NCBI GenBank assembly: GCA_021287065.1
Contig: JAJTBE010000196.1
Span: 2,539 to 66,538, forward strand
Direction of reading: 5' to 3'
DNA: 64,000 nucleotides
Origin: Bacillota bacterium
GTDB lineage: Bacteria > Vulcanimicrobiota > JAJTBE01
Part shown: piece by piece, positions 13,635 to 63,084 of the stretch
Layout: the number at the start of each line of letters is the position of its first letter
Position numbering within the stretch: the stretch's first letter is position 1
The notes under the pieces: model-generated
The model's input: only the letters and a program-made list of their open reading frames with translations
What the model was told of the DNA's origin: nothing
Databases searched by the model: none
Position numbers and translations under genes: made by a program

Positions 13635-13838
13635 CCATTATAAATCTTGACTGTAAGGCAGCATGAGGAATAAAATGTACGGATGCAGATTTATAGAAAT
13701 GCATTCTGAGCGAAATAGACCGGAATTTCCGGCAAATCAGCAGAGAAACAGGCACGGGAAATATTCCGGAACAACCGGAGCTTACCGGTAAAGCGAAGGC
13801 GGACGGCAGCCGCCGCCTCCCAAAGAAAGGAAAGCATT

Positions 13839-15275
13839 ATGCTTAAACTCAACAATCACAATAACAACAATCATAACAATCAGAAACTCGAAAACTTCAT
13901 TGATGAGGATCTAATAATAAAGACCCTTGAAGCCACCAAGGATTGCAGCCGTGAATGGGCAAAAAGAATAGTGGCAAGAGCGCTTGAGATGGAAGGACTG
14001 AATTTCTTCGAGGTATCATGCCTTCTCAACTGTGATGACCCGGAAGTTCTTGAGGATATATTTGCAGCAGCCAGACAGATAAAAGATAAAATTTACGGCG
14101 ACCGAATCGTTATGTTTGCCCCCCTGTATATTTCGAACCTTTGCGGAAACGAATGCCTCTACTGCGCATTCAGAGCCACCAATAAGGAACTTGCAAGAAG
14201 AGCACTCACTCAGGAAGAAATTGAAAGAGAAGTAAAAAATCTGGTGGATCAGGGACATAAGAGAGTCCTTATGGTTGCCGGAGAATCATACCCCCACGAG
14301 GGATTCGAATATGTTCTCAAAAGCATCGACACAGTATATAAAGTTCAGTCGGGCAACGGAAGCATCAGAAGAGTTAATGTAAACATCGCCCCTCTGGAAG
14401 TTGAAGAGTTCAGACAGCTCAAGGAAAAAGGAATCGGAACATTCCAGTTATTTCAGGAAACTTACCATGTGCCTACTTATGAAAAAATGCATACAGGCGG
14501 AAAGAAAAAGAACTTCCTCTGGAGGCTTTATGCTATGGACAGAGCTTTCCAGGCAGGCATAGACGATGTTGGAATCGGAGTTCTCTTCGGACTTTATGAT
14601 TATAAATACGAAATTCTCGCACTGATGCAGCATATCAAACATCTGGAAGACGAATTCGGAGTAGGTCCCCACACTATCAGCGTCCCCAGACTCGAACCCG
14701 CAGACGGATCAAGCGTATCAGTTGAACCGCCCTTCCCGGTAACTGACGAACAGTTTAAGAAGATAGTGGCAATTCTCCGCATAGCGGTTCCTTACACCGG
14801 AATTATTATGTCCACAAGAGAAACCCCTAAAATCCGCAGAGAGACCTTCGCTGTAGGCGTTTCGCAGATTTCCGCAGGTTCACGGACAAACCCCGGCGGA
14901 TACTCTGTTGACGACTTCGAGGAACACTCATCCCAGTTCTCACTCGGAGACCACAGAGCGCTTGATGAAGTTATCAACGATCTGGTAACAATGAAATATA
15001 TTCCTTCATTCTGCACCGCCTGCTACAGACTGGGCAGAACAGGCCACGACTTTATGGATATGGCAAAACCCGGAGATATAAAATACCATTGCAGCCTCAA
15101 TGCACTTTCCACCCTGCTTGAGTATCTCAACGATTACGCTTCACCCCGCACGAAAGAAGCCGGAGAGAAACTTATCAGAGAAAAACTTGATGCATCTGAT
15201 GACGAAAAATGGAAAACCATAGCTTCAGAAATGCTTGAACAGGTTAAATCAGGCAAAAGAGACTGTTTCATATAG
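13839..15275 (+). CDS. hydG: [FeFe]-hydrogenase maturase HydG (radical SAM tyrosine lyase)
   Basis: N-terminal CGNECLYC (CX3CX2C) radical SAM motif. C-terminal CTAC-X22-C auxiliary cluster motif characteristic of HydG. ~478 aa. Confidence 0.8.
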   Translation: MLKLNNHNNNNHNNQKLENFIDEDLIIKTLEATKDCSREWAKRIVARALEMEGLNFFEVSCLLNCDDPEVLEDIFAAARQIKDKIYGDRIVMFAPLYISNLCGNECLYCAFRATNKELARRALTQEEIEREVKNLVDQGHKRVLMVAGESYPHEGFEYVLKSIDTVYKVQSGNGSIRRVNVNIAPLEVEEFRQLKEKGIGTFQLFQETYHVPTYEKMHTGGKKKNFLWRLYAMDRAFQAGIDDVGIGVLFGLYDYKYEILALMQHIKHLEDEFGVGPHTISVPRLEPADGSSVSVEPPFPVTDEQFKKIVAILRIAVPYTGIIMSTRETPKIRRETFAVGVSQISAGSRTNPGGYSVDDFEEHSSQFSLGDHRALDEVINDLVTMKYIPSFCTACYRLGRTGHDFMDMAKPGDIKYHCSLNALSTLLEYLNDYASPRTKEAGEKLIREKLDASDDEKWKTIASEMLEQVKSGKRDCFI

Positions 15276-15320: not shown

Positions 15321-16553
15321 ATGCGCAAAACACCTGAAAGTCTCAGGCTTCACATTGGTATATTCGGCAGAAGAAATGTGGGAAAATCATCCCTCATCAA
15401 CTGTATTGCCCGTCATTCCGTTTCCATCGTTTCGCCTGAGGCCGGAACCACTACGGATCCGGTAAAAAAAGCTATGGAACTGCAGCCTCTGGGACCGGTT
15501 CTCCTCATCGACACAGCAGGGCTTGATGACGAAGGCGAGCTGGGTGAACTCAGAATCAAAAGAACAAAAAAGATTATCGAAGCAACGGAGCTTGCCATCC
15601 TCGTTACGGAAACGGGACAATGGGGAGATTTCGAAGACGGTCTTGTAAAGGAATTCAACGAAAAGAAAATCCCCACGATTCTTATAATCAACAAAGTTGA
15701 TGAAAACCCGCCATCTGCAGACGAAGTTGCAAAACTTAAAGAAGTCTGCAAATCGGTTCTTTCGGTTTCAACGGTTACAGGAGAAGGCGTTGAGGAACTC
15801 CGGCAGGAGATTATCGAAAAAGCTCCCCAGTCATTCCTCGAATCCCCGCCAATCATCAGGGATCTCATCGAACCCGGCGAAACGGCAATTCTCGTTATTC
15901 CCATCGATTTTGAAGCCCCCAGGGGAAGAATTCTTCTGCCCCAGTCCCAGAGCATCAGAGATGTAATCGATAACAATTCGATATGTATTGTGGTTAAGGA
16001 AACCGAGCTGGATCAGTCCATAGCCAATCTGAAAGAGCTTCCGAAGATTGTGGTTACCGACTCTCAGGCATTCGACAGAGTTAAGAGATCCACACCGGAC
16101 AATGTGCTTCTCACATCATTTTCGACCCTGTTTGCCCGTTACAAAGGGGATCTTCTTACTTTTGCAAAGGGTGCGAAAGCTATAAGCCAACTTAAACCCG
16201 GAGATAAGGTGCTTGTTGCGGAAGCCTGCACACATCATCCCATCGGCGATGATATCGGAACTCTGCAGATTCCCCGGAAGTTTGCGGCATTTCTCGGATT
16301 TGAGCCGGAATTCGAATGGGCGCACGGAACCAATTTCCCTGAAGATCTGACAAAATTTAAGCTCATCGTACACTGCGGAGCCTGCGTCTGGAATAGAAAA
16401 CAGGTTCTCTCAAGAATCCAGAATGCTATGTCTCAGGGAGTTCCAATCACTAACTACGGAATTTCATTAGCTTATGTAAACGGCATTTTCGAAAGGGCTT
16501 TGACTCCCTTTGTGGATCAATATCCCGAACTGAAAGAGCTTTTTGAAAAATAA
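15321..16553 (+). CDS. hydF: [FeFe]-hydrogenase maturation GTPase HydF
   Basis: G1 P-loop GRRNVGKSS. C-terminal CTHHP...HCGAC (CxH...HCxxC) FeS-binding motif typical of HydF. Immediately downstream of hydG. Confidence 0.8.
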   Translation: MRKTPESLRLHIGIFGRRNVGKSSLINCIARHSVSIVSPEAGTTTDPVKKAMELQPLGPVLLIDTAGLDDEGELGELRIKRTKKIIEATELAILVTETGQWGDFEDGLVKEFNEKKIPTILIINKVDENPPSADEVAKLKEVCKSVLSVSTVTGEGVEELRQEIIEKAPQSFLESPPIIRDLIEPGETAILVIPIDFEAPRGRILLPQSQSIRDVIDNNSICIVVKETELDQSIANLKELPKIVVTDSQAFDRVKRSTPDNVLLTSFSTLFARYKGDLLTFAKGAKAISQLKPGDKVLVAEACTHHPIGDDIGTLQIPRKFAAFLGFEPEFEWAHGTNFPEDLTKFKLIVHCGACVWNRKQVLSRIQNAMSQGVPITNYGISLAYVNGIFERALTPFVDQYPELKELFEK

Positions 16554-20959: not shown

Positions 20960-21136
20960 CTTGGGATCATTTTATATTAAATAGATGTAAATTTCAATCC
21001 TGAGAAAGGTTTCATGTAAAGTTTTTTAGAGGAATTGGTTTGGGTTAAAAGAATCTTTCCCCAGAAGAACGGGGAGAAACCCAGTGCTGCTGAATTATGG
21101 CATGTATTTATCTGATCGCTAACGGGTATTGGAGCG

Positions 21137-21380
21137 GTTTGCCCAGCTCCCGGAGAAAACTTTTTGAAAAAAGTTTCCTCCGGACCTCCATCCCAAAACT
21201 TTTGAATTGAGGGACCGACCAGGGGGTTAGGACCAACGGACCGGGAGTTTAAGGGACCCTCAGAGGGAACCACGCTTTTTTGGAAAAGCGGGTTTCCCTC
21301 CGAACCTCCTTCCTTGAAAAACAGGAGTATAGGGTTGGGATTGGAGTAGTTTTTACTGATTCAGCGGCATTGAGGGAGAG
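21137..21380. repeat. Dispersed intergenic repeat element, copy 1 (full length with 5' hairpin module)
   Basis: Shares a ~170-nt core with 34780-34950 and 58858-59025: gggaccgacc...ggaccgtcagagggaaccacgcttttttggaaaagcg...ctccgaacctcc.tccttgaaaaacaggagta...ggcattg.gg. Its 5' module gtttgcccagctcccggagaaaacttttt recurs at 31041. Confidence 0.8.
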
Positions 21381-21420
21381 ACTGACACCATTACAAATCC
21401 GGCATGTTTAAGGAGTTTTA

Positions 21421-30062: not shown

Positions 30063-30890
30063 TTATCTTTCCGGTAGTCTTGAAGATTCGAATGACAGAA
30101 CCTTCCATAATTCGTATGATGCTACAAGCATCAGGAAAGGACAGACAACAGCAAGCGCTCTCAGCCATACCGGTGAATCCGGACCACCAAATAAAAGCCC
30201 GCCCAGAGCAAAACCCGGATTGATGAAGACGGTAAAAGGTATAAAATCGTGGGCTATTGATGAAATCAAGCCGTCAATGAGGAGTGTTCCCACCAGAAGA
30301 AAGCCTGCAATAAAAGCTGAGCGGGAATGTGCCTTAGCGCTGCTGCCGGATGTCAGCGAACAATACAGTCCAAGCAGAGTAAAGAACAGGATTACGATTA
30401 GATCAAGAATGTAGGTGCCGAATATCTGATGGATCTTCATATTGAGAAGCATTCCCAGTCCGAAGAATACAGGAAAGAATCCGGTCAGCTCCATAAAAAG
30501 CGGATAAAATGCTACGAAAAATTTGCCTTTGAGAATATCTTCCGGAGTCATAAGACTCGACAGAAGAGTCCCGTACGTGCGTTGTTCTCTCTCTGAGGAA
30601 TAAAGGGTAAAGGATGCAGTAATGCTTTTGAACACAAAGTAAAAAAGCTGGAGAAATACAGTGATGGCTACGGCGGTACCTGTGATCTGCTGCCAGTTGT
30701 ATTCCTCGAATACGCTGGCGCCGTTGACTATACACTGAAAAGAACATAAAACAGTAACCGGCAAAATTAAAACAGCAAGGTAACCAACATAACCGGGGAT
30801 CCTGAATTTCTTTTTACTTTCCTGCCGTTTTCTGATGTACAGGTCTTTAATGTAGATTGGGTTATTAAATATTTCTTTTGTAAAAGACAT
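30063..30890 (-). CDS. Polytopic membrane protein, possibly an ABC-2-type permease-like protein (paralogue A)
   Basis: Start set at MSFTKEIFNNPIYIKDLYIRKRQ, which is preceded by AGGAGGT. The ORF track extends to 30935. About 6 TM helices. Roughly 60% identity to the next gene. Confidence 0.55.
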   Translation of the reverse strand: MSFTKEIFNNPIYIKDLYIRKRQESKKKFRIPGYVGYLAVLILPVTVLCSFQCIVNGASVFEEYNWQQITGTAVAITVFLQLFYFVFKSITASFTLYSSEREQRTYGTLLSSLMTPEDILKGKFFVAFYPLFMELTGFFPVFFGLGMLLNMKIHQIFGTYILDLIVILFFTLLGLYCSLTSGSSAKAHSRSAFIAGFLLVGTLLIDGLISSIAHDFIPFTVFINPGFALGGLLFGGPDSPVWLRALAVVCPFLMLVASYELWKVLSFESSRLPER

Positions 30891-31040
30891 ATACCGGTAC
30901 CTCCTGATTTCTGCCGGCTTAGCCCGGTGGAGCACCTATCCTCTATACTATTATACGATCTTGAAGGTTATTTTACAACATGCACCGGGGATTATCCCCA
31001 TGAATTAAGGCATGGATTCATCCGAACGCTCACGAGAATT

Positions 31041-31067
31041 ATGTCCGTTTGCCCAGCTCCCGGAGAA
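31041..31067. repeat. 27-nt fragment matching the 5' module of the dispersed repeat, part of a perfect 13-bp-stem hairpin
   Basis: gtttgcccagctcccggagaaaacttt is identical to 21137-21163. Here ctcccggagaaaa/ttttccgggag form an inverted repeat overlapping the stop of the gene at 31081. Confidence 0.6.
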
Positions 31068-31080
31068 AACTTTTACAGTA

Positions 31081-31911
31081 TCATTTTTCCGGGAGTCTTG
31101 ATGTTTCAAATGAGAGAACTTTCCACAATTCCAGAGATCCGAGAAGCATAAGGAAAGGACAGACAAAGACCACAGCCCTGAACCAAAAAGGCAAAGCCGG
31201 ACTGTAATAAAGAAGTCCCCCCAGGGCAACACCGGGATTGATGAAAACCGTAACCGGGACAGAAGTTCCCTGAGATACGGAAGCTATAAGCCCGTCAACA
31301 AGCAGAGTGCCAACCATTATGAAACCTGCGATAAAAACCGCTCTTGAGTGGGCTTTTGAACTGTTATTGGAGATCATAGAGCAGTAGAGTCCAATCAGCG
31401 TAAAGAAAATTATTACGATAAGATTCAGAAAATACGAACCGACTATCTGGTAAACATTCAGTTTCAGCAATATTCCCATAATTGCAAACAGTGGAAAAAA
31501 GCAGGTCAATTCCATAAACAGGGGATAAAACGAAACAAAAAACTTACCTTTGAGAATATCTTCAGGAAGCATCAGGCTGGAAAGAAGGGAGCCATAGGTG
31601 CGCATTTCTTTTTCAGATGAATAGGAAGTGAAAGATGAGGTAACGCTTTTGAAAACAAAATAGAGAAGCTGAAGAAACATTGTGATAGCCAGAGCTGTAT
31701 AGGAGATACCTTCCCAGGCGCTGCCATCAAATGATGGTGCTCCGTGGAGAGCGTAACGGAAAGTGGAGAGAATAATCAGAGGTGAAAATAAAATAGCCAG
31801 ATAACCTGCCTGAGAAGGTATCCTGAGCTTTTTTTTACTTTCCTGTCTTTTTTTTATATACATCGCTTTGATGTAAATGGGATTTTTTAACAGATTATTT
31901 AAAAACGACAT
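31081..31911 (-). CDS. Polytopic membrane protein, paralogue B of 30063-30890
   Basis: Start set at MSFLNNLLKNPIYIKAMYIKKRQ, preceded by GGGAGGT in the same context as paralogue A. The track extends to 31998. Confidence 0.55.
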   Translation of the reverse strand: MSFLNNLLKNPIYIKAMYIKKRQESKKKLRIPSQAGYLAILFSPLIILSTFRYALHGAPSFDGSAWEGISYTALAITMFLQLLYFVFKSVTSSFTSYSSEKEMRTYGSLLSSLMLPEDILKGKFFVSFYPLFMELTCFFPLFAIMGILLKLNVYQIVGSYFLNLIVIIFFTLIGLYCSMISNNSSKAHSRAVFIAGFIMVGTLLVDGLIASVSQGTSVPVTVFINPGVALGGLLYYSPALPFWFRAVVFVCPFLMLLGSLELWKVLSFETSRLPEK

Positions 31912-32062
31912 ATCCCGGTACCTCCCGATTATCAGAGGAATTATGCCGGTACCTGCACCCGGGCAATTAATAAAGCTTACTTTATTTAAACCCGGCATAA
32001 CTCCTTTGTATAATCTTAAACACCGGACAAACCGAATTGTTCAGAAAATTTCATGGCAATTT

Positions 32063-33484
32063 TCAGATTTTTTTCAGTTCTTTTTCCAGTTCTTTCTTAT
32101 CCTTAGGCGTCCAGCGGGGACCTTTGAGTTTGCGGAGCATTTCCATTGCCTGTTCTCTTGAAATGCCCTGTTTTTCCTCATATTGTTTCCAGAATCCGTC
32201 CCACCATCCCGGAGGTTCAACTTTTGATCCGTCATATTCGGTGGGGCGTTTGGTATCGCCTTCCGTCACAAGGCTTCCCACATAGTCGGCATTCTGATAA
32301 ACCTTCTGAATCTGGCTTGCGATGGAAGTTACATCATTGTCTGTAACAACGCCATTATCAGTGGCTTTGTAGAACTGAATTGTTACCCTCACAGGGTATC
32401 TGTCATCTCTTTCGATAGCGAGGCCGTCGATTTCCGTATAGGGTCCCTCAACCTTGCCGTGGCCGATTACTGCATTTTCAACTCTGCTTCTTGCTGAAGG
32501 AGCAGCATCAGATTTTGATTCTTCACAGGGAGCTGCAGAGGGGCAGGGCGGAGGAATGGGCATTTCCTTATGCTTGAGGGGAATCTGGATAAGAAGGACC
32601 ATATTCAGCCCCTCGGTATTCTTTTTATTTGCCGGTTTATTCTTACTGTTTGGCGATTTTGTGGTTTTGTCAGCCTGTTCAGCCAGAAAATCACTCAGTC
32701 TCTTACCGGTTAGGCTTGTTCTTTTTCCGTTGAGGTTGAAGAAAAGCCTCTGTCCCCAGGTTCCGCCCGCTTCGAATGCATCCCGTTTATTGTCGATAAT
32801 AGTAGTGCTGGTTCCCTCTCTTGTTACAAGAACGGTAAGAACAGCGGGGTTCTTTTCATAAGACTGATAATTGAAAAGGACGGGGTTAAACTGTGCTATT
32901 CCCTTTTGCGGTATGGGGAGAAAACATGCCTGGGCGCTGACGAGAACATGGGTGTCTCTTTTGGCAAGAAGGGATCTTTTTGTGCCTTTCCACGATTCGG
33001 GTTTGCTGAGGTAAAGGCGGGGATCTTCAAGGAACTGTTTGAGATTGATTTTTTTGAGTGTTTTGCCTTTTTCGTTGCCTACGAGCATAAAGAATTTTTC
33101 CGGTTTAATATCACATGATTTGTCTGAAAAATTAGGAAAACGAATAACGGGCATACAGAAGAGCTGATATTTTTCAGTGGCAGGATCCTGAAGCTGGACT
33201 TGTATGGTCATGTCGCTGATATTGGGTCCCACTGATGAGCCTTTGTATCTGCCGGTATCTTCCCAGGTAACATTGAGAACATTGAGTCCGTGCTTAGATG
33301 CAAGCTGGGTTACGGAATTGTCATATACCATATTGACGGTTTTTTCGATAACCTGTTTGTATGCATTATATGCCTTCATTTTTTTCGAAGGTGCCGGTTT
33401 AACATCCTGTTCTCCCACAGCCCATCCGGCGCATACAAGAGCAAACATTACAATAGCCGCCACAGTTGCTATAATGTTTTTCAT
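32063..33484 (-). CDS. Hypothetical secreted protein
   Basis: Signal peptide MKNIIATVAAIVMFALVCAGWAVG. 473 aa. No domain recognised. Confidence 0.5.
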   Translation of the reverse strand: MKNIIATVAAIVMFALVCAGWAVGEQDVKPAPSKKMKAYNAYKQVIEKTVNMVYDNSVTQLASKHGLNVLNVTWEDTGRYKGSSVGPNISDMTIQVQLQDPATEKYQLFCMPVIRFPNFSDKSCDIKPEKFFMLVGNEKGKTLKKINLKQFLEDPRLYLSKPESWKGTKRSLLAKRDTHVLVSAQACFLPIPQKGIAQFNPVLFNYQSYEKNPAVLTVLVTREGTSTTIIDNKRDAFEAGGTWGQRLFFNLNGKRTSLTGKRLSDFLAEQADKTTKSPNSKNKPANKKNTEGLNMVLLIQIPLKHKEMPIPPPCPSAAPCEESKSDAAPSARSRVENAVIGHGKVEGPYTEIDGLAIERDDRYPVRVTIQFYKATDNGVVTDNDVTSIASQIQKVYQNADYVGSLVTEGDTKRPTEYDGSKVEPPGWWDGFWKQYEEKQGISREQAMEMLRKLKGPRWTPKDKKELEKELKKI

Positions 33485-34692: not shown

Positions 34693-34709
34693 TTATGGGA
34701 TAAAACCTC

Positions 34710-34950
34710 AGAGGAAAGCTTGTTTTTTAAAAACAGGTTTTCCTCCGAGCCTCCGAACATCCGTGCCAAAACTTTGGAATTGGGGGACCGACCGGGGGGA
34801 TTTGGACCGACGGGGGTTTGGGGACCGTCAGAGGGAACCACGCTTTTTTAAAAAAGCGAGGTTGCCCTCCGAACCTCCCTCCTTGAAAAACAAGAGTAAG
34901 GGGCTGGGGGATTGGAGTGGTTATTGCTAATTCAATGGCATTGGGGTTAG
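34710..34950. repeat. Dispersed intergenic repeat element, copy 2
   Basis: Aligns with copy 1 over the hairpin module and the ~170-nt core. Confidence 0.8.
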
Positions 34951-55834: not shown

Positions 55835-56788
55835 TCAGAGGTTTATTCTTCTCGCTGTCTGATAATGTCCCGACCAGTAAACATTATTAAGGCTTGTCAC
55901 TTCAACAGGTCTTTTTGCCGTAGGTCTGTGTACAAATTCGCCGTTTCCGATGTAGATACCTACATGAGTATAGTTGCCTCTTTTGTAGGTGTTTTTAAAA
56001 TATACCAGATCGCCGGGTTTAAGCTGTGATTTATCTACCTTTGCTCCGTAATTGGCAAGGCCCTGAGCTGAATACTGGTGTTCAAACCCTTTTGGAGCGC
56101 CTGACCATTCGATAACAGATGAAACAAAATCGGCACAGCGGGCGAAAGATCCCTTGCGGAAATTCTTACCGTCAAATTTGACGGCTGTATTGACCAGTTT
56201 CTGTCCATAAGGAGTTTGAACCTGTTTTTCGGTTTTTGTTTCCGCTGGTTTCTGAGCAAGAGCAGCTTCTTTTGCCCTTTCTCTTTCCTGCTGAACTGCA
56301 AGCCCTTCTGCGTGAATATCTTCAGGGGCTGACGGAGCATGACCGGGCATATTGGTATCATTAACAACTGTGGGGTTAGTGGAGCTTGTGAAGCCGGGGG
56401 GGAGCTGGGACTGCTGCTGACTGACCATTTCAACGGCAGCAGGGGCATTGCTCATTTCCGATGTTTCGTGAGCCATTGCCGGTGTGGTAATAGCAACGGC
56501 GCTGAACAGAGTGAGTCCGATAAGGAAGCTGCTTCCTATTCTGGACATGGTATCTGCCATTCTGGTTAACATTCCGGGACCTGAAGAATCTTTAAGATAA
56601 GAAGCTTCCGACTGCTGGGCGGCTACTTCCGAAGGAATGTTAATCTCGGATTTATCTTCCACTGCTCCTGATGATGCTGATGATAAATCAGGAGTGGTAA
56701 CCTTAATGACTACCCCTTCGTTTTTTGAACCCGGAATATGTAAAGTATAATTATTTGCTGATATGTTTGCTGAGTTAATTCTATCCAT
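55835..56788 (-). CDS. NlpC/P60 (C40) family peptidoglycan peptidase with an MDRIN N-terminus and one internal TM
   Basis: Start set at MDRINSANIS, preceded by GAGGAGG. The track extends to 56833. Hydrophobic segment SFLIGLTLFSAVAITTPAMA. C-terminal Cys/His motifs (ARCADFVSSV, THVGIYIG). Confidence 0.65.
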   Translation of the reverse strand: MDRINSANISANNYTLHIPGSKNEGVVIKVTTPDLSSASSGAVEDKSEINIPSEVAAQQSEASYLKDSSGPGMLTRMADTMSRIGSSFLIGLTLFSAVAITTPAMAHETSEMSNAPAAVEMVSQQQSQLPPGFTSSTNPTVVNDTNMPGHAPSAPEDIHAEGLAVQQERERAKEAALAQKPAETKTEKQVQTPYGQKLVNTAVKFDGKNFRKGSFARCADFVSSVIEWSGAPKGFEHQYSAQGLANYGAKVDKSQLKPGDLVYFKNTYKRGNYTHVGIYIGNGEFVHRPTAKRPVEVTSLNNVYWSGHYQTARRINL

Positions 56789-56947: not shown

Positions 56948-58189
56948 TTAACCGCCCGGATCATCTATATGATTTTCAAGATAGTGTGGTTCCTCGGAGC
57001 CTTTAGCCCAGTCGATTTCGAAAGCTTTATCGAAAGCGCTGTTGACTTTTTTATCAAGAACTTCCACATCCGCTTCACGGTTGACTTTGAATCCGGCATT
57101 TGTCCAGTTGGCGCTGCCAAGGATAACCTGATCATCATCAAACACACCGATTTTTGCGTGGAGTTTGTTTTCGGTTGCCTTATCGGGGACATACCATCTT
57201 ACGGGAACTCCGGCATCTTTAAGCTGGGCGGCGGCTTTTTCGTTTACCGCAAAATCCTTGATTTTGAGGGGATTAAGGAGAATTCTTACATCAAGGCCTC
57301 TCTTATGGGCATCAATGAGATTCTCAACGGTTTCTCTCTGTGAAAGGCAGAAAAGTTCGCAGTGGATTGATTTCTTAGCATTTCTGATAGCTCTGTTTAC
57401 GCTCATGCCGATGGTCTGGTCATTTCTGTCAAGGCTGCTGTTGATGAGCTGAACTGCTGAATTTCCCTCAGGATGTGCAGGGGTCTTGTCGATCCAGGGA
57501 AGATCTTTCTGTTCGCCGCCGGATGTAAGCCAGTCTTTGCGGAACATCCATTCCATATTGTCAACTGCAGGACCTTCAACCATAACATCAACATCGCGGT
57601 TGTTGGGTGAATGCTGGCCCCAGTTCATTCCGCCGATAATCGCCTTGTTTCCGTCAACAATCATCATCTTTACATGGTCGATCTGGCCGAATTTTGATTC
57701 GGGGGAGTTAGCTTCCTTTACAGGATAAAGAAGAACATCTACGCCGTTTTTGCGTAATTTTTCAATGGCTTTGCCTTTTTCAGCTTCCATAGGCAATTCG
57801 TTGGGAGGATCCATAATAATCTGGACTTTAACGCCGTTTTTTGCGTCCTGTATGAGAAGATCCACCAAATCTTTTTTATCGAGGCTGAACATTTCGATCT
57901 GGATAGATTTTTTGGCTCCTCTGACAAGGTCCTCGATATTTTTGAAGATATCGCTGGCACTATCACCCTTACTTATTGAGCCGTCCATAAGGGGAGTTAC
58001 TTTGTTGCCGGTGGAAAAATATCTGCGTGAACTTTCCGGGATTTTATCCCAGTTTACATTATCCGACGAGCTTTTTTCAAAACCATCCTTAACACTCTGC
58101 TGATTTTCGCCTCTGGCAGAGGGTTTGGTTTTTGCTTTGCTCTGTACGGGAGCTGCATCGTTTGCTCTTATGCCGTTTATTCTGTCCAT
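56948..58189 (-). CDS. Phospholipase D superfamily protein (two HKD motifs) with an MDRIN N-terminus
   Basis: Start set at MDRINGIRAND, preceded by AGGGAGGA. HVKMMIVDG and LHAKIGVFDDDQVILGSANWT. Confidence 0.7.
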   Translation of the reverse strand: MDRINGIRANDAAPVQSKAKTKPSARGENQQSVKDGFEKSSSDNVNWDKIPESSRRYFSTGNKVTPLMDGSISKGDSASDIFKNIEDLVRGAKKSIQIEMFSLDKKDLVDLLIQDAKNGVKVQIIMDPPNELPMEAEKGKAIEKLRKNGVDVLLYPVKEANSPESKFGQIDHVKMMIVDGNKAIIGGMNWGQHSPNNRDVDVMVEGPAVDNMEWMFRKDWLTSGGEQKDLPWIDKTPAHPEGNSAVQLINSSLDRNDQTIGMSVNRAIRNAKKSIHCELFCLSQRETVENLIDAHKRGLDVRILLNPLKIKDFAVNEKAAAQLKDAGVPVRWYVPDKATENKLHAKIGVFDDDQVILGSANWTNAGFKVNREADVEVLDKKVNSAFDKAFEIDWAKGSEEPHYLENHIDDPGG

Positions 58190-58496
58190 AATATCCTCCC
58201 TGAAGAATAAAGGGATTGTTACTTCTACCACATCCATGATTATATCACAAGTGTAAATATTTTATGTTATCAACATGTTAACATCCGGATAAAAATAGTC
58301 CTTTAGACCATATATACCAGTCTGTTTAACTGCTTCATTATTTCTATTAAACCGAGCTGTTTTACCGGATTTATTGATTGAAATCTGAAAATAACTCAGG
58401 AGCGGGCAGCCCCTAATGCTGCTGAATCAGTAATACTCTTATACTCTCCAGCAATAAAGCTCAAATCACCAGTAAACTTCATAACGGTAACAAAAC

Positions 58497-58842
58497 GCCG
58501 GCGACTGCCGGATCGCAGGCGTCCCGCCTGTCCCCCGGTTAAACAATCTCGTTTTCTATCCTCAATCTCCAAAATGGATATACAACTCCAGCAATAGGGG
58601 CGGTAATAATTATAGAGTTGGCAAGCATTCGGGGGGATCGCGGTATGAGTTTGCGTCGCGGGCGGACCTGCGGGTCCGCGTCGCGGTTGGAAACCGCTCC
58701 TACAATCCCTTGTCAAGCTTGTGGTTATGGGGGTTACTGGCGGTTGGCGGGTGGTTTTGGGAACCGGGGGACAGGCGGGGACGCCTGCGATCCGGCAGTC
58801 GCTGGCTGAGCTTGTGGTTATGGGGGTTACTGGCGGTTGGCG
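58497..58842. repeat. Composite repeat region: 44-nt inverted repeats (58497-58540 vs 58762-58806) flanking 221 bp, plus two identical 34-nt direct repeats (58716-58749 and 58809-58842)
   Basis: Seen directly. gccggcgactgccggatcgcaggcgtcccgcctgtcccccggtt is the reverse complement (one indel) of aaccgggggacaggcggggacgcctgcgatccggcagtcgctggc. agcttgtggttatgggggttactggcggttggcg occurs twice. Confidence 0.75.
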
Positions 58843-58857
58843 TTTTTTTTTGGGATC

Positions 58858-59025
58858 CGGGGGACCAAAGGACCGACCGGGGACTATGGGGATTTGGGGA
58901 CCGTCAGAGTGAACCACGCTTTTTTGGAAAAGCGAGGTCTCCTCCGAACCTCCCTCCTTGAAAAACAGGAGTATGAGGTTGAGGTTTTAAGTGAATTTTA
59001 CTAATTCAGTGGCATTGGGGTTCAG
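58858..59025. repeat. Dispersed intergenic repeat element, copy 3 (core only), followed by an A-rich low-complexity tract
   Basis: Aligns to the cores of copies 1 and 2. Downstream at 59030-59120 there are repeated c/aaaaa motifs. Confidence 0.8.
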
Positions 59026-59127
59026 GGGAATCTTTTTTTTTAAAAAGTTCCCCCTGAAAAACGGCCTCTCCGAAAAAAACGGTCTTCCAAAAAAGCTCCC
59101 CCAAAAATAATCCCAACAAAAAGCGGA

Positions 59128-61587
59128 TTATATAAACAGGTTTACATTTGCCTGGCTTGCTCTTTCCAGATATGTGGCAACTCCGCCTTCTTCAATATCA
59201 TCAATGAGTTCGGATTTTTTGATTCCCATAATCTCCATTGTCATTGTGCAGGCTATGAGTTTAATTCCCTGTTCTCTGGCGCTTTCGATTAACGCATCAA
59301 GGCTTTCAACATTTTTATTTTCCATTACATACTTCATCATTGAAGTTCCCAGACCGCCAAAATGCATTTTTGAAAGGGCGAGCTGATCCGGACCTTTGGG
59401 CATCATGCTGCCAAACATTGTGGAAAGAAGATCTTTCTTTTCCTTCGGGGCATCTTTTTTCTTGAGAACGTTCAAGCCCCAGAATGTGAAGAACATATTG
59501 ACCTTGCTGCCGATGGATGCTGCTCCGTTGGCAATGATGAATGAAGCTAGAGCGCGGTCGAGATCATCGCTGAAAACGATAATCGTAATCTCTTTTCCGT
59601 CAGGACTTTTCAGAACCATATCTGAAGCGGCGGCAGATCCTTTTCTGATGATTGCGGTATATGTACCCTTATCACTTTCAATGGAAACAAGTTCGTTTCC
59701 GGTAGCCATACACCAGGATTTGGCATCTGTGGGGAATCCTGAATCGGAGGCGCAAATCTTAATAGTATCGCCGATGTTGATTTCGTCCATTTTTGCCTTT
59801 AATTTCATAATGGGTCCGGGACATTGAATTCCACAGGCGTTAATCTCATGTTCCACTTTTATTTCTCCTTTTGGTGCTGAATCGGAGGATTCGATACTTT
59901 TGTTGAGGCAAGCCTGAACAAGTGCTTTTCCTGCCTGTTTTTTTGCAGCATCGTAGGTTTTCCATCCACCGCTGAGGTTTTTGGTTTTAAACCCGTGCTG
60001 GTTGAGAATTCTGCAGGCGACATAACTTCTCTGTCCGGAAGCACACATTACTATATAAGTTTTTGATTTATCAAGGGTATTGAGTTTGTTTCTGATTTCA
60101 TCCACGGGAATATTGATGGATCCCGGTATTGTGCCTGAAAGTCTTACTTCAGCTTTCCCTCTGACATCAAGAATGACATTCTTTTCATAATCAAGACAGT
60201 CAACTTCGTCCCAGCGGATAACATCCACATATTTTCTGAGAATATTGCCTGCAACAAAACCTGCCATATTGACGGGATCTTTTGCAGATGAGAAAGGCGG
60301 GGCGTAAGCAAGTTCAAGTTCTTCGAGATCAAACACTGTCATGCCGGATCTTATTGCTGTGGCAAAAACATCTATTCTCTTATCAACTCCATCAATACCT
60401 ACTATCTGTGCTCCGAAAAGCTTTCCGGATCCTGGATCAAATGTGATTTTAACTGCCATCATTGTTGAACCGGGATAATAGGAAGCATGGGAAGACGCAT
60501 GGTTGTAAGAAGCCAGATAAGGGATATTATTTCTTTTCAGGTTCTTTTCGTTCATACCAGTTGCAGCAACCACCAGATCAAAAACCTTGACTATGGAAGT
60601 TCCCTGAGTTCCCTTATAAACCGAATTTCCACCAAGAGCATTTTCCGCTGCGATTCTGCCCTGTTTGTTTGCCGGTCCTGCAAGGGGTATGAGGGTCTGA
60701 GCGCCTGATATGTAATCTTTTACTTCAACCACATCGCCTACTGCAAAAATATCGGGGTTGGAAGTTCTCATGTGTTCGTCGGTTTTAATCCCACCGAGTT
60801 TTCCGATTTCGAGACCTGCATTTTTTGCCAACTGGATTTCCGGTCTGACACCAATGGAGAGGATAACCATATCACAGGGGATCTCAGTTCCGCCCTGTGT
60901 TGTTACATAAGTTTTCTTTCCTCTTTTTTCAAACGATTTAACCCCGTCGCCAAGATGGAGATTAACTCCCTTATCCACAAGGTGGGTCTGAACGAGTGAA
61001 GCCATCTCAACATCGATGGGCGCCATAACCTGTTCAAGCATTTCGACAACAGTAACTTTAACATCCCTGGTTATGAGGTTTTCAGCCATTTCCAGACCTA
61101 TGAAGCCTCCGCCTACGATAACAGCTTCCTCTATTTGCTTTTTATCGATGACAGTTTTAATTTCATCCATATCCGGAATATTTCTCAATGAATAGATTGA
61201 ATCAAGGCTTATTCCGTGAAGGGGCGGTTTTAACGGTGCAGCGCCGGGTGAAAGAATGAGCTTATCATATTCTTCGGTATAGAGTTTATGATTTTTCAGA
61301 TCTTTTACTTCTATAATCTTGTTTTCCGGGTCTATGGAAATCACTTCACAGTGGTTTCTCACATCAATTCCGAATCTGGTTCTAAGTGCTTCCGGAGTGG
61401 TAACAAGAAGATCGGATCTGTCCTTAATCTCCAGACCAATATGATAGGGCAGGCCGCAGTTGGCAAAAGAGATAAATTCTCCCTTTTCAAAAACAATTAT
61501 TTCAGCATTTTCATCAAGTCTTCTGGCTCTTGCGGCAGCACTTGCTCCACCGGCAACTCCGCCAACTATACAAATTTTTGTCGGCAT
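59128..61587 (-). CDS. Four-domain persulfide/CoA-disulfide reductase: CoADR-like flavoprotein + rhodanese + TusA-like + DsrE-like
   Basis: Start set at MPTKICIVGGVAGG, preceded by AAGGAGA. SFANCGLPYH active site. Rhodanese CASGQRS. TusA-like CPGP. C-terminal DsrE-like ITIIVFSDD...FFTFWGL...LIACTMTM. Confidence 0.75.
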   Translation of the reverse strand: MPTKICIVGGVAGGASAAARARRLDENAEIIVFEKGEFISFANCGLPYHIGLEIKDRSDLLVTTPEALRTRFGIDVRNHCEVISIDPENKIIEVKDLKNHKLYTEEYDKLILSPGAAPLKPPLHGISLDSIYSLRNIPDMDEIKTVIDKKQIEEAVIVGGGFIGLEMAENLITRDVKVTVVEMLEQVMAPIDVEMASLVQTHLVDKGVNLHLGDGVKSFEKRGKKTYVTTQGGTEIPCDMVILSIGVRPEIQLAKNAGLEIGKLGGIKTDEHMRTSNPDIFAVGDVVEVKDYISGAQTLIPLAGPANKQGRIAAENALGGNSVYKGTQGTSIVKVFDLVVAATGMNEKNLKRNNIPYLASYNHASSHASYYPGSTMMAVKITFDPGSGKLFGAQIVGIDGVDKRIDVFATAIRSGMTVFDLEELELAYAPPFSSAKDPVNMAGFVAGNILRKYVDVIRWDEVDCLDYEKNVILDVRGKAEVRLSGTIPGSINIPVDEIRNKLNTLDKSKTYIVMCASGQRSYVACRILNQHGFKTKNLSGGWKTYDAAKKQAGKALVQACLNKSIESSDSAPKGEIKVEHEINACGIQCPGPIMKLKAKMDEINIGDTIKICASDSGFPTDAKSWCMATGNELVSIESDKGTYTAIIRKGSAAASDMVLKSPDGKEITIIVFSDDLDRALASFIIANGAASIGSKVNMFFTFWGLNVLKKKDAPKEKKDLLSTMFGSMMPKGPDQLALSKMHFGGLGTSMMKYVMENKNVESLDALIESAREQGIKLIACTMTMEIMGIKKSELIDDIEEGGVATYLERASQANVNLFI

Positions 61588-61683: not shown

Positions 61684-63084
61684 TTAGCTTTTTCTGGGTG
61701 ATCCGTCGGGCCATACCTTGGGTCCTTTTTTGGTAGGATCAAATTTTACGCCCAGGCTTTCAACAGCTTCGTCCCACTTTGAATCTTTGGCAAATGCCAG
61801 TTCTTTATAGTCGGGACCAAGTGATGATGTTGTGGGTGCAAAAATGTGGAGACCCTTTGAATTGGGATGCTGCTGAGGATTGACCTCATTGGCAAATACC
61901 GCTTCTTCAAATGCTTTCACAGTTTCCTGTGCAGCTTTCTTCAGGTTGTCATCTTTGGTTGTGTCGATGATGTTTGTTGAAAGCTGATGGAGGTCTCTCA
62001 TATCTCTGTAAGGATCCCATCCGCCGCCGTAATTTTCGGCATTGGCGATAGCCTGTTTTACGGTGTCTTTGTCGCTGGTTTTGATAACAGCATCAGCAAG
62101 ACCGTCAACAGCATCCTTAAGCTGATCCATCTTTGTAAGATCGGTGGCTGAGAATGTAGGAATATCGTTGTTGTGTTCTGCATTGACATCAACGATGATT
62201 TTTGCAAATTCTCTGGGTGTAACATCAACTTTGTAAAGATTGCTCTGAACTCTGTTGAGAGCTTCGCCCATTGTTCTTCCGCCGAGCATTGAGTTGTATG
62301 TCCAGCCTGCGCCGCCTTCACTTTCTTCTGAAGCGAGAAGGATCTTTGCGGTGTTTCTGTGTTCATAGGCAACTTCTGTGCTGGCCATAAGGCATGCATC
62401 GTATCCGATAATGTCGATATCTTTGCCTGTTTCAGCTTTAACTTTTTTGAGAGCTGCATCGATCTCAGGAAGTTTGCCGAATTTGCCATCGGTTTCGTCT
62501 GACATTGCGCCGGTCCATCCGCCGCCATGGTCGTTGAAGATAACAGCAATATGATCAGCGGGGAATTTCTTAACTGCATCGGAGATGAGTTTGAACATTG
62601 TGTCGCCGCTTGACATATCCACATGCTGTCCGTGATCAGCGATAACTTCGGAATTGAGCTGGCCCATCTTGTCGTCTTTTGTGACATAGAGGGTGCGGCA
62701 GCCTGACCATGAAATTGTGTTGGGATCTGTAGGAGGAGTCTGTGATTCTCCTTCTTCACCGGGTCCTTTTTTGCCGAATCCGATAGGTGCCGGTTTGGGA
62801 CCTACATCGATGATTGCAGCAATATGGGTGTTTGCATCTGAACCGATCATTTCCATCTGGTCAACATTGCCGACCTGGAACTGGGTGAGGTTGCAGTCTG
62901 CAGCGATAAAGTTGAGAACGAGCCATTTTTTATGGGGTTTAATAGCTCCATCTTCGCTTTTTCCACCGAGATCCACTTTGTCAGCCGGGGGCTGATTTGT
63001 AGCTTCAGCTTCTTTTTTGGGAGCGGCGGGGCCTGCTCCTGAGAGGTAAGTCTGATTAAGTCTTACATCATTAATTCTGTCCAT
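61684..63084 (-). CDS. Clostripain-like (C11) cysteine peptidase with an MDRIN N-terminus
   Basis: Start MDRINDVRLN, preceded by AAGGAGGAG. Catalytic His/Cys context VIFNDHGGGW ... IIGYDACLMAS. Confidence 0.6.
   Translation of the reverse strand: MDRINDVRLNQTYLSGAGPAAPKKEAEATNQPPADKVDLGGKSEDGAIKPHKKWLVLNFIAADCNLTQFQVGNVDQMEMIGSDANTHIAAIIDVGPKPAPIGFGKKGPGEEGESQTPPTDPNTISWSGCRTLYVTKDDKMGQLNSEVIADHGQHVDMSSGDTMFKLISDAVKKFPADHIAVIFNDHGGGWTGAMSDETDGKFGKLPEIDAALKKVKAETGKDIDIIGYDACLMASTEVAYEHRNTAKILLASEESEGGAGWTYNSMLGGRTMGEALNRVQSNLYKVDVTPREFAKIIVDVNAEHNNDIPTFSATDLTKMDQLKDAVDGLADAVIKTSDKDTVKQAIANAENYGGGWDPYRDMRDLHQLSTNIIDTTKDDNLKKAAQETVKAFEEAVFANEVNPQQHPNSKGLHIFAPTTSSLGPDYKELAFAKDSKWDEAVESLGVKFDPTKKGPKVWPDGSPRKS

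Follow-up and report, generated by a model that had tools for sequence, protein, structure and literature searches.

The inverted and direct repeats at 58497-58842, upstream of a phospholipase D (PLD)-family gene, are on balance best read as the copy-specific central insert of a long-form member of a small, non-coding, MITE-like family of dispersed repeats that ends in terminal inverted repeats of 24-34 nt. This reading is built on the anatomy of the segment, the membership of its flanks in the family, the long and short architecture of the family in relatives, and the recurrence of one small module in the same genome, all of which are shown by the sequence comparisons. We infer that the insert was made by DNA-level insertion, duplication, or foldback events, and that it probably has no dedicated function, serving at most as an incidental transcription barrier or 3'-end stabilizer between co-directional genes. 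The original prediction had offered three explanations for the segment (a MITE with terminal inverted repeats, an invertible DNA switch controlling the hydrolase genes, and a long structured RNA). The first of these came closest and is partly supported, once it is re-framed so that the MITE is the unit that encloses the segment. Throughout, "the window" is the whole 64-kb stretch of DNA that was analyzed, and positions are those of the window unless a contig is named (Table 1).

Table 1. Features of the segment, its surroundings, and the repeat family in the window and in relatives
Feature	Position	Strand	Basis or remark
Left arm of inverted repeat	58497..58540	+	Repeat search, folding
Interior, 221 bp	58541..58761	+	Sequence, folding
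Two-hairpin module	58653..58712	+	BLASTP of + frame translation, folding
Direct repeat copy 1, core 58716-58749	58714..58772	+	Repeat search
Right arm of inverted repeat, 45 nt with one extra C	58762..58806	+	Repeat search
Direct repeat copy 2, core 58809-58842	58807..58865	+	Repeat search; just beyond right arm
Long-form copy ("copy 3") of dispersed MITE-like family	58400..59031	+	Alignments, BLAST, terminal motifs
Left terminal inverted repeat of copy 3, CCCCTAATGCTGCTGAATCAGTAA	58410..58433	+	Inverted relative to 58997-59020 and 21353-21376
Conserved right core of family, copy 3	58866..59022	+	Repeat families D2 and D6; alignments
Family copy 1, short form of ~300 bp, both terminal repeats	21073..21388	+	Repeat search, alignment
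Family left-part fragment	31001..31074	+	Repeat search (D7)
Family copy 2, without left end	34693..34948	+	Repeat search, alignment
PLD-family gene, two PLDc_2 domains, product starts MDRIN	56948..58189	-	Pfam
Terminator-like palindromic T-run hairpins 3' of the oxidoreductase gene, outside the family copy	59021..59100	-	Terminator-like site 59096-59064
Pyr_redox_2 / Rhodanese / TusA / DsrE gene, 819/820 aa	59128..61590	-	Pfam annotation
Family short form, ~255 bp	L009 4695-4950		Between V-ATPase B and D subunit genes, inside operon
Family long form	L016 1050-1625		
Family long form	L017 3423-4048		
Family long form, 706 bp	L019 7139-7844		

Anatomy of the Repeats and Their Setting

A repeat search recovered the 44-nt inverted-repeat pair of the original prediction, with 221 nt between its arms. 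The pair was found in two pieces, 58497-58525/58778-58806 (29 nt, 97% complementary) and 58523-58540/58762-58779 (18 nt, 100% complementary), which combine into a single 44/45-nt pair with one mismatch (G/A, at the fourth base) and one extra C in the right arm. The GCGGACC/GGTCCGC hairpin that had been noticed within the bracketed segment is present at 58662-58668/58673-58679, and the two perfect 34-nt direct repeats are indeed 93 bp apart, with one copy in the bracketed segment and the other past the right arm. Beyond its 34-nt core, the direct repeat continues for ~59 nt in all, or for 78 nt at 82% identity, and the inner 11 nt of the right arm double as the end of its first copy. Both kinds of repeat are far above chance expectation: in 300 dinucleotide-preserving shuffles of the 938-bp intergenic spacer, the longest exact inverted repeat was at most 12 nt (compared with 25 nt in the spacer itself) and the longest exact direct repeat was at most 14 nt (compared with 34 nt).

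Folding predicts that each arm by itself forms two short hairpins, which in the left arm have the stems CCGGC/GCCGG and CAGGCG/CGCCTG, and that two further hairpins form in the interior. The first ~109 nt of the interior are AT-rich and unstructured, and the remainder is GC-rich and contains these two hairpins together with direct-repeat copy 1. The predicted fold of the whole segment has a z score of -9.6 on either strand, and this value is driven entirely by the inverted repeat itself. The locally elevated GC content that had been reported is also present (0.55-0.57, compared with a window mean of 0.43), and 58476-58919 is the largest GC-rich island in the window, with a peak of 0.73. On the plus strand, 58749-58780 carries a canonical G-quadruplex motif (four runs of G3 or more, with loops of <= 7 nt), one of only two in the 64-kb window; it runs from the last part of direct repeat 1 into the inner part of the right arm, and lies in the template strand of the flanking genes.

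The segment occupies the spacer between two co-directional genes; the element lies 308-842 bp upstream of the PLD gene (protein MCE1248551.1) and in the 3' flank of the oxidoreductase gene, which itself lies upstream of the PLD gene. The setting is as originally described: the spacer, given as roughly 900 bp, spans 58190-59127 (938 bp), and the PLD gene with its MDRIN start begins at an ATG at 58189 that is preceded, 7 nt upstream, by GGAGG. Terminator-like hairpins were found directly 3' of the oxidoreductase gene (Table 1) and also at 58511-58498 and 58416-58396; at the first of the latter two sites, the sense (-) strand has a long stem followed by CGUUUUGUUA, which is U-rich. The palindrome at 59021-59058 was picked up in an Rfam search only as a sub-threshold miRNA-like hairpin. 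Outside the repeat element, in an AT-rich stretch directly upstream of the PLD start, 58267-58292 contains an imperfect palindrome, TTATCAACATGTTAACATCCGGATAA, that looks like an operator. The MDRIN N-terminal peptide is common to three neighboring minus-strand genes (55835-56788, 56948-58189, and 61684-63084), which by Pfam encode an NlpC/P60 protein, the PLD protein, and a peptidase C11; this shared peptide may serve a cluster of secreted hydrolases as a common leader or targeting signal.

The Enclosing Repeat Family

The original prediction placed the segment next to a copy of a dispersed repeat, and this copy (copy 3) does abut the segment on its right side. Because the terminal repeats of copy 3 were found at 58410-58433 and at 58997-59020, the bracketed segment sits inside the copy rather than beside it, and the enclosing unit is ~630 bp long. 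Copy 3 has the ends that are common to the family and a center of its own. Its right ~160 nt (from ~58866) align with window copies 1 and 2 and with elements from JGI metagenomes at 84-89% identity; this right core starts at 58866 in a block of G runs and continues through two T-run palindromic hairpins to the terminal repeat at 58997-59020. About 410 bp (58434-58845) are specific to copy 3 and have no other similarity in the window. In the alignment, the canonical central hairpin of the family is absent from copy 3, and the segment stands in its place.

The window contains four copies or fragments of the family. Their terminal inverted repeats have the form CCCnAATGCYRCTGAAT...ATTCAGYGGCATTGRGG, and TAGTAGGGGCGAACCCAATGCCACTGAATTA is a sequence of the family ends. 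The left third of copy 3 aligns poorly with the other copies, and one element with an insert and two partial elements with foreign DNA between them cannot be separated with certainty by sequence comparison. The idea that the interior represents the canonical left part of the family in inverted form was rejected, because the local alignment was no better than those obtained with shuffled sequences (p = 0.05-0.12).

Long and Short Forms of the Family in Relatives

A profile of a spurious minus-frame peptide encoded by the family retrieved nine "hypothetical proteins", seven of them from JGI or ENA metagenomes and two from the source MAG (MCE1249027.1 and MCE1246549.1). In the DNA that we compared (the 64-kb window and ~150 kb from relatives), the family occupies at least five distinct loci in JGI relatives in addition to the two in the same MAG. 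The JGI contigs carry it at 84-89% identity over the core by BLAST, and copy 3 itself matches relatives at 84% identity over ~120 nt. The family has repeatedly been annotated as hypothetical proteins (P0121-P0129 and P0131), all of which are spurious, and the MAG contig that encodes MCE1246549.1 ends within a family copy.

Two size classes are apparent: a short form of ~255-300 bp and a long form of 575-706 bp, the latter found at L016, L017, and L019. In L016 and L017, the central hairpin of the short form (GAAAACTTTTTCAAAAC ... GTTTTCAAAAAGTTTTC) is split by an extra ~290 bp, and its two halves bracket this insert as inverted repeats: a 24-nt repeat (92%) with its copies 288 nt apart in L016, and a 43-nt repeat (79%) with its copies 297 nt apart in L017. 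Bracketed inserts were thus found in two of the three long forms from relatives. No such inverted-repeat bracket was found around the insert of L019; the terminal repeats of this form are 34 nt long (94% complementary), and inside it lies a direct repeat of 142 nt with a period of 256 bp.

No sequence similarity was detected between the central insert of copy 3 and those of the long forms in relatives, and copy 3 parallels these forms in architecture, not by homology. The long forms would arise when the central hairpin of the family is split by a few hundred base pairs of hairpin-rich sequence with runs of G or C that is prone to local duplication, and the surviving halves of the split hairpin would then bracket the insert as an inverted repeat. 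In copy 3 the bracketing arms would be the 44-nt repeats, each consisting of two small REP-like stem-loops, and a local duplication of 93 bp would have generated the perfect 34-nt direct repeats. The order of events that we propose is insertion into the central palindrome, or foldback duplication of the hairpin, at the DNA level, followed by the 93-bp duplication. The arms are 98% identical, compared with 79-92% for the brackets in relatives, and a near-perfect helix of 44 bp looks more like a recent DNA duplication than like an evolved RNA stem. The high identity of the arms could instead result from homogenization by ongoing inversion or gene conversion.

A Two-Hairpin Module Recurs in the Same Genome

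The only part of the segment for which we found a second copy is a module of ~50 nt, which recurs at another locus of the same MAG. In the segment, it consists of hairpin A (58662-58679) and hairpin B (58683-58697) followed by CTCCTAC. When the plus-frame translation of 58653-58709 (ADLRVRVAVGNRSYNP) was compared with MCE1246549.1 (P0128) by BLASTP, the E value was 1e-5; this protein reads ...NSVAL-RANLRVRVGVANPSYDP..., so that the family terminus is followed by the homologue of the module. The Ala-to-Gly and Arg-to-Pro differences between the two translations imply the changes c58684g and g58696c, which affect bases that pair with one another in hairpin B, and hairpin B accordingly appears, as deduced from the codons, to carry one compensatory pair. 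A GTAG head adjoins hairpin B (in the reverse complement of 58683-58703). From its recurrence and the paired change, the module can be regarded as an independent small repeat of the REP-like kind. It faces opposite ways with respect to the family end at the two loci, though with n = 2 this is no more than a coin toss. A 16-nt match to hairpin B that lies 3' of the PLD gene in the contigs L005, L006, and L007 is not a hairpin there and was set aside as a chance match.

Searches for Further Copies

The original prediction had suggested a search for other copies of the 44-nt repeat, and no second full copy was present in any of the collections that we searched. Within the window, the arm core does not occur again even when three mismatches are allowed. 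An exact 22-mer from the arm core had one match among 185,579 species-representative genomes (GTDB, 596 Gb) and none in JGI metagenome contigs, and a related 21-mer had none in viral contigs. The single match, a 28-nt identity at L002 2930-2957, is in the clpS-clpA spacer of a gammaproteobacterial MAG (JBDSMM010000024.1), where it lies within a cluster of three GC-rich hairpins. We estimate that ~0.07 chance matches to a 22-mer are expected in 596 Gb (both strands, uniform composition), and several-fold more in GC-rich genomes, and the extra 6 nt of the match follow from the palindromy of both sequences. Given the size of the database, this palindromy, and the lack of any further similarity, we did not accept the match as a true copy, and it probably arose by chance.

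Searches with larger regions and with translations gave similar results. No blastn match to 58400-59130 was found in plasmids or phages. When the stop-free plus frame (58491-58958) was back-translated and JGI metagenomes were scanned for its peptides, none of the 144 pattern matches was confirmed, and a spurious 173-aa minus-strand ORF used as bait had no match among 5.8 billion proteins. With the plus frame as query, HMMER was run exhaustively against 1.84 billion representatives, and the only matches were an ORF derived from the family and a false positive of repetitive sequence. Apart from the two-hairpin module, the translated searches yielded nothing for the arms or the interior, and the arm hairpin sequence gave no papers when the literature was searched in full text.

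Comparison with MITEs and REP Elements

The enclosing family resembles the MITEs of other bacteria, such as the Correia elements of Neisseria and the RUP and BOX elements of pneumococci, in several respects. It is small and non-coding (the copies span 255-706 bp and contain only spurious ORFs), its terminal inverted repeats measure 24-34 nt (~24 nt in the window copies and 34 nt in L019), and it is dispersed in intergenic spacers, even within operons, in multiple copies (four in 64 kb) that vary in length in a modular fashion. It differs from them in that no clear target-site duplication and no cognate transposase were found in the window and the fetched loci. The flanks of L019 are compatible with a TA duplication and those of L009 have GGTTCGCCCC on both sides, and nothing clear was found at the window copies; no transposase gene was present in the window or in the fetched loci. 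The proposal that the feature is a MITE with terminal inverted repeats thus holds for the enclosing family, which has such repeats and dispersed copies. It does not hold for the 44-nt arms, which lie within the element instead of at its ends, have no target-site duplication, and were not found in another copy in the collections searched.

The segment itself shares features with REP, REPIN, and BIME sequences. It is composed of short, GC-rich stem-loops in alternating orientation with local direct repetition, and it lies between co-directional genes. The arms and the module have predicted stems of 5-7 bp and in this respect resemble the short imperfect palindromes with a head that characterize REP sequences; one module has the GTAG head beside its hairpin, and the stem of that hairpin appears to be preserved by the compensatory change. 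The likeness may extend to an incidental role as a terminator or mRNA-stabilizing hairpin: the long stem followed by CGUUUUGUUA on the sense strand may add to the terminator-like hairpins 3' of the upstream gene, as REP/BIME clusters do. The segment is unlike these sequences in that its arm unit was found at a single locus in everything that we searched and its module in two known copies, and in that its inverted units are separated by 221 bp rather than by tens of base pairs.

An alternative is that 58497-58806 is an independent mobile element that inserted into copy 3, either a second MITE or, like a REPIN, a doublet of inverted REP units, which lacks a transposase of its own and is mobilized in trans from a transposase or RAYT gene elsewhere in the genome. 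Near-identical 44-nt arms around a short non-coding interior fit such an element, as do arms composed of REP-like stem-loops, a GC content of 55-57% that is foreign to a genome of 43% GC, and the recurrence of the module, with its GTAG head beside the hairpin, at a second locus in the opposite orientation to the family terminus. However, the sequences that flank the arms, GTAACAAAAC and TGAGCTTGTG, do not form a target-site duplication. A second copy of the arms was likewise absent from the 64-kb window, from the genomes (apart from the 28-mer described above), from the JGI metagenomes, and from the protein searches with translated ORFs. The spacer of 221 bp far exceeds that of described REPINs. 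Finally, Pfam scans found no Y1 (RAYT) or other transposase gene in the window. We consider a nested element unlikely, though it is the most probable of the alternatives.

Structured RNA

If the segment acted as RNA, with the 44-bp stem as its main helix, it could be the long leader at the 5' end of the PLD mRNA, or else serve the oxidoreductase mRNA as a 3' terminator or stability element. The very stable predicted folds on both strands, the sense-strand stem that runs into the U-rich tract at 58511-58498, and the compensatory pair inferred for hairpin B are compatible with such a role. The fold statistic, however, comes wholly from the repeat, and better terminator candidates are available directly 3' of the upstream gene (59096-59064). 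A perfect duplex of 44 bp would, moreover, be a substrate for RNase III rather than a typical regulatory fold. No Rfam family reached its gathering threshold and there was nothing meaningful at E <= 10; the best sub-threshold matches scored 10.9-20.5 bits, against cut-offs of 38-100, and were to irrelevant families.

Comparison of PLD genes argues in the same direction. Upstream of the homologues that are ~67-69% identical to the PLD protein, the spacers are ~200 bp long, contain nothing comparable to the segment, and are not syntenic with the window. A closer homologue (85%) is an N-terminally truncated fragment on a contig that contains no upstream DNA. Some of the more distant PLD homologues carry the labels Vulcanimicrobiota or Armatimonadota; the source MAG itself is labeled "Firmicutes bacterium" at NCBI. 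With no Rfam match and no conservation upstream of the retrieved PLD homologues, the long structured RNA of the original prediction is unsupported, and we regard an RNA function of this kind as improbable. A retron was dismissed because the neighboring genes encode the PLD and Pyr_redox/Rhodanese proteins and the window contains no reverse transcriptase, and diversity-generating retroelements, integron attC sites, CRISPR arrays, and riboswitches were dropped for want of defining protein or RNA matches.

Inversion of the Segment

Like the invertible promoter switches of fimS, hin, and the Bacteroides invertons, the segment consists of inverted repeats that bracket a few hundred base pairs and precede a gene whose product is probably a secreted enzyme. 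It differs from them in its unusually long arms and in the absence of a nearby recombinase and of an internal promoter-like site. A site-specific inverton whose flipping alters the expression of the PLD gene and the neighboring MDRIN hydrolase genes would account for the geometry, since 44-nt inverted repeats 221 bp apart upstream of a gene are what inverton finders look for. It could also explain the very high identity of the arms, which might reflect recurrent recombination, and the break of an independent assembly within the left arm. The only other copy of the module is opposite in orientation to the family end, which with n = 2 is again a coin toss.

Pfam analysis of 40 ORFs in 31-44372, together with precomputed Pfam annotation of two contigs from the Logan assembly (L001 and L003) that covers the rest of the window and 2.7 kb past its end, revealed no recombinase, transposase, or reverse transcriptase, and only RuvC. 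From position 1 of the window to ~8 kb past the segment, there is accordingly no serine or tyrosine recombinase, and the search that had been suggested for recombinase genes nearby, including beyond the window, was negative as far as the annotation reached. A scan for sigma-70-like promoters, the only type covered, detected none on either strand of 58541-58761. The AT-rich, palindrome-bearing region upstream of the PLD gene (58240-58300) is outside the segment, and the terminator-like hairpins at 58511-58498 and 58416-58396 lie between the two. The assembly break, at 58522, does not coincide with the branch points expected from inversion (58525/58526 or 58540), and the interior is not significantly similar to the canonical family sequence when that is reversed (p = 0.05-0.12). 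As neither a recombinase nearby nor an internal sigma-70-like site was found, an invertible switch that controls the hydrolase genes is unsupported, and in our view very improbable.

Scarcely more probable is a looser version, in which the arms are sites of phase-variable inversion by a recombinase encoded elsewhere, or else the ends of a new hairpin-targeting mobile unit that colonizes the central hairpin of its host MITE. The near-perfect match of the arms, the reversed orientation of the one other module copy, and the contig break within the arm are compatible with either form, which would lie upstream of the hydrolase genes that share the MDRIN leader. If inversion did occur, phase variation would be linked to a cluster of probably secreted hydrolases.

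Assembly of the Spacer

Part of the structure could in principle be an artefact of short-read assembly, a mis-join or collapse where the spacer is rich in repeats. In the independent Logan assembly of SRR17235527, one contig ends at 58522, inside the left arm, and the next begins at 58991, inside the family core, so that 58523-58990 is supported by a single assembly; the MAG contig that encodes P0128 likewise ends within a family copy. Up to these breaks, both Logan contigs nevertheless match the window base for base, the first 26 nt of the left arm included, and contig breaks at dispersed repeats are expected in any case. The exact repeats (25 and 34 nt) are, in addition, shorter than the larger k-mers of the usual metagenome assemblers, and we give an artefact very little credence.

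Significance of the Element and Other Observations in the Window

The feature is most likely an ordinary, lineage-specific repeat element of little import for biology at large. The analysis adds a MITE-like repeat family not described before, which has short and long forms and belongs to an uncultured lineage, and it shows that even conspicuous inverted and direct repeats in front of a gene can be no more than the variable core of an element of this kind. In practice, the element interrupts short-read assemblies and gives rise to spurious "hypothetical proteins", and it would be a false-positive inverton for tools that rely on repeat geometry.

Two other regions of the window drew our attention. 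At 30063-33484 on the minus strand, there are three tandem paralogous genes (290-473 aa, 70-74% nucleotide identity) that have no Pfam match, and a fragment of the repeat family lies between two of them. At 13700-13835, a GC-rich leader with paired CCGGAA/TTCCGG segments, for which Rfam returned no match, precedes a radical-SAM/BATS gene (13839-15275). This gene is followed by a HydF homologue (15321-16553), which points to a context of [FeFe]-hydrogenase maturation.
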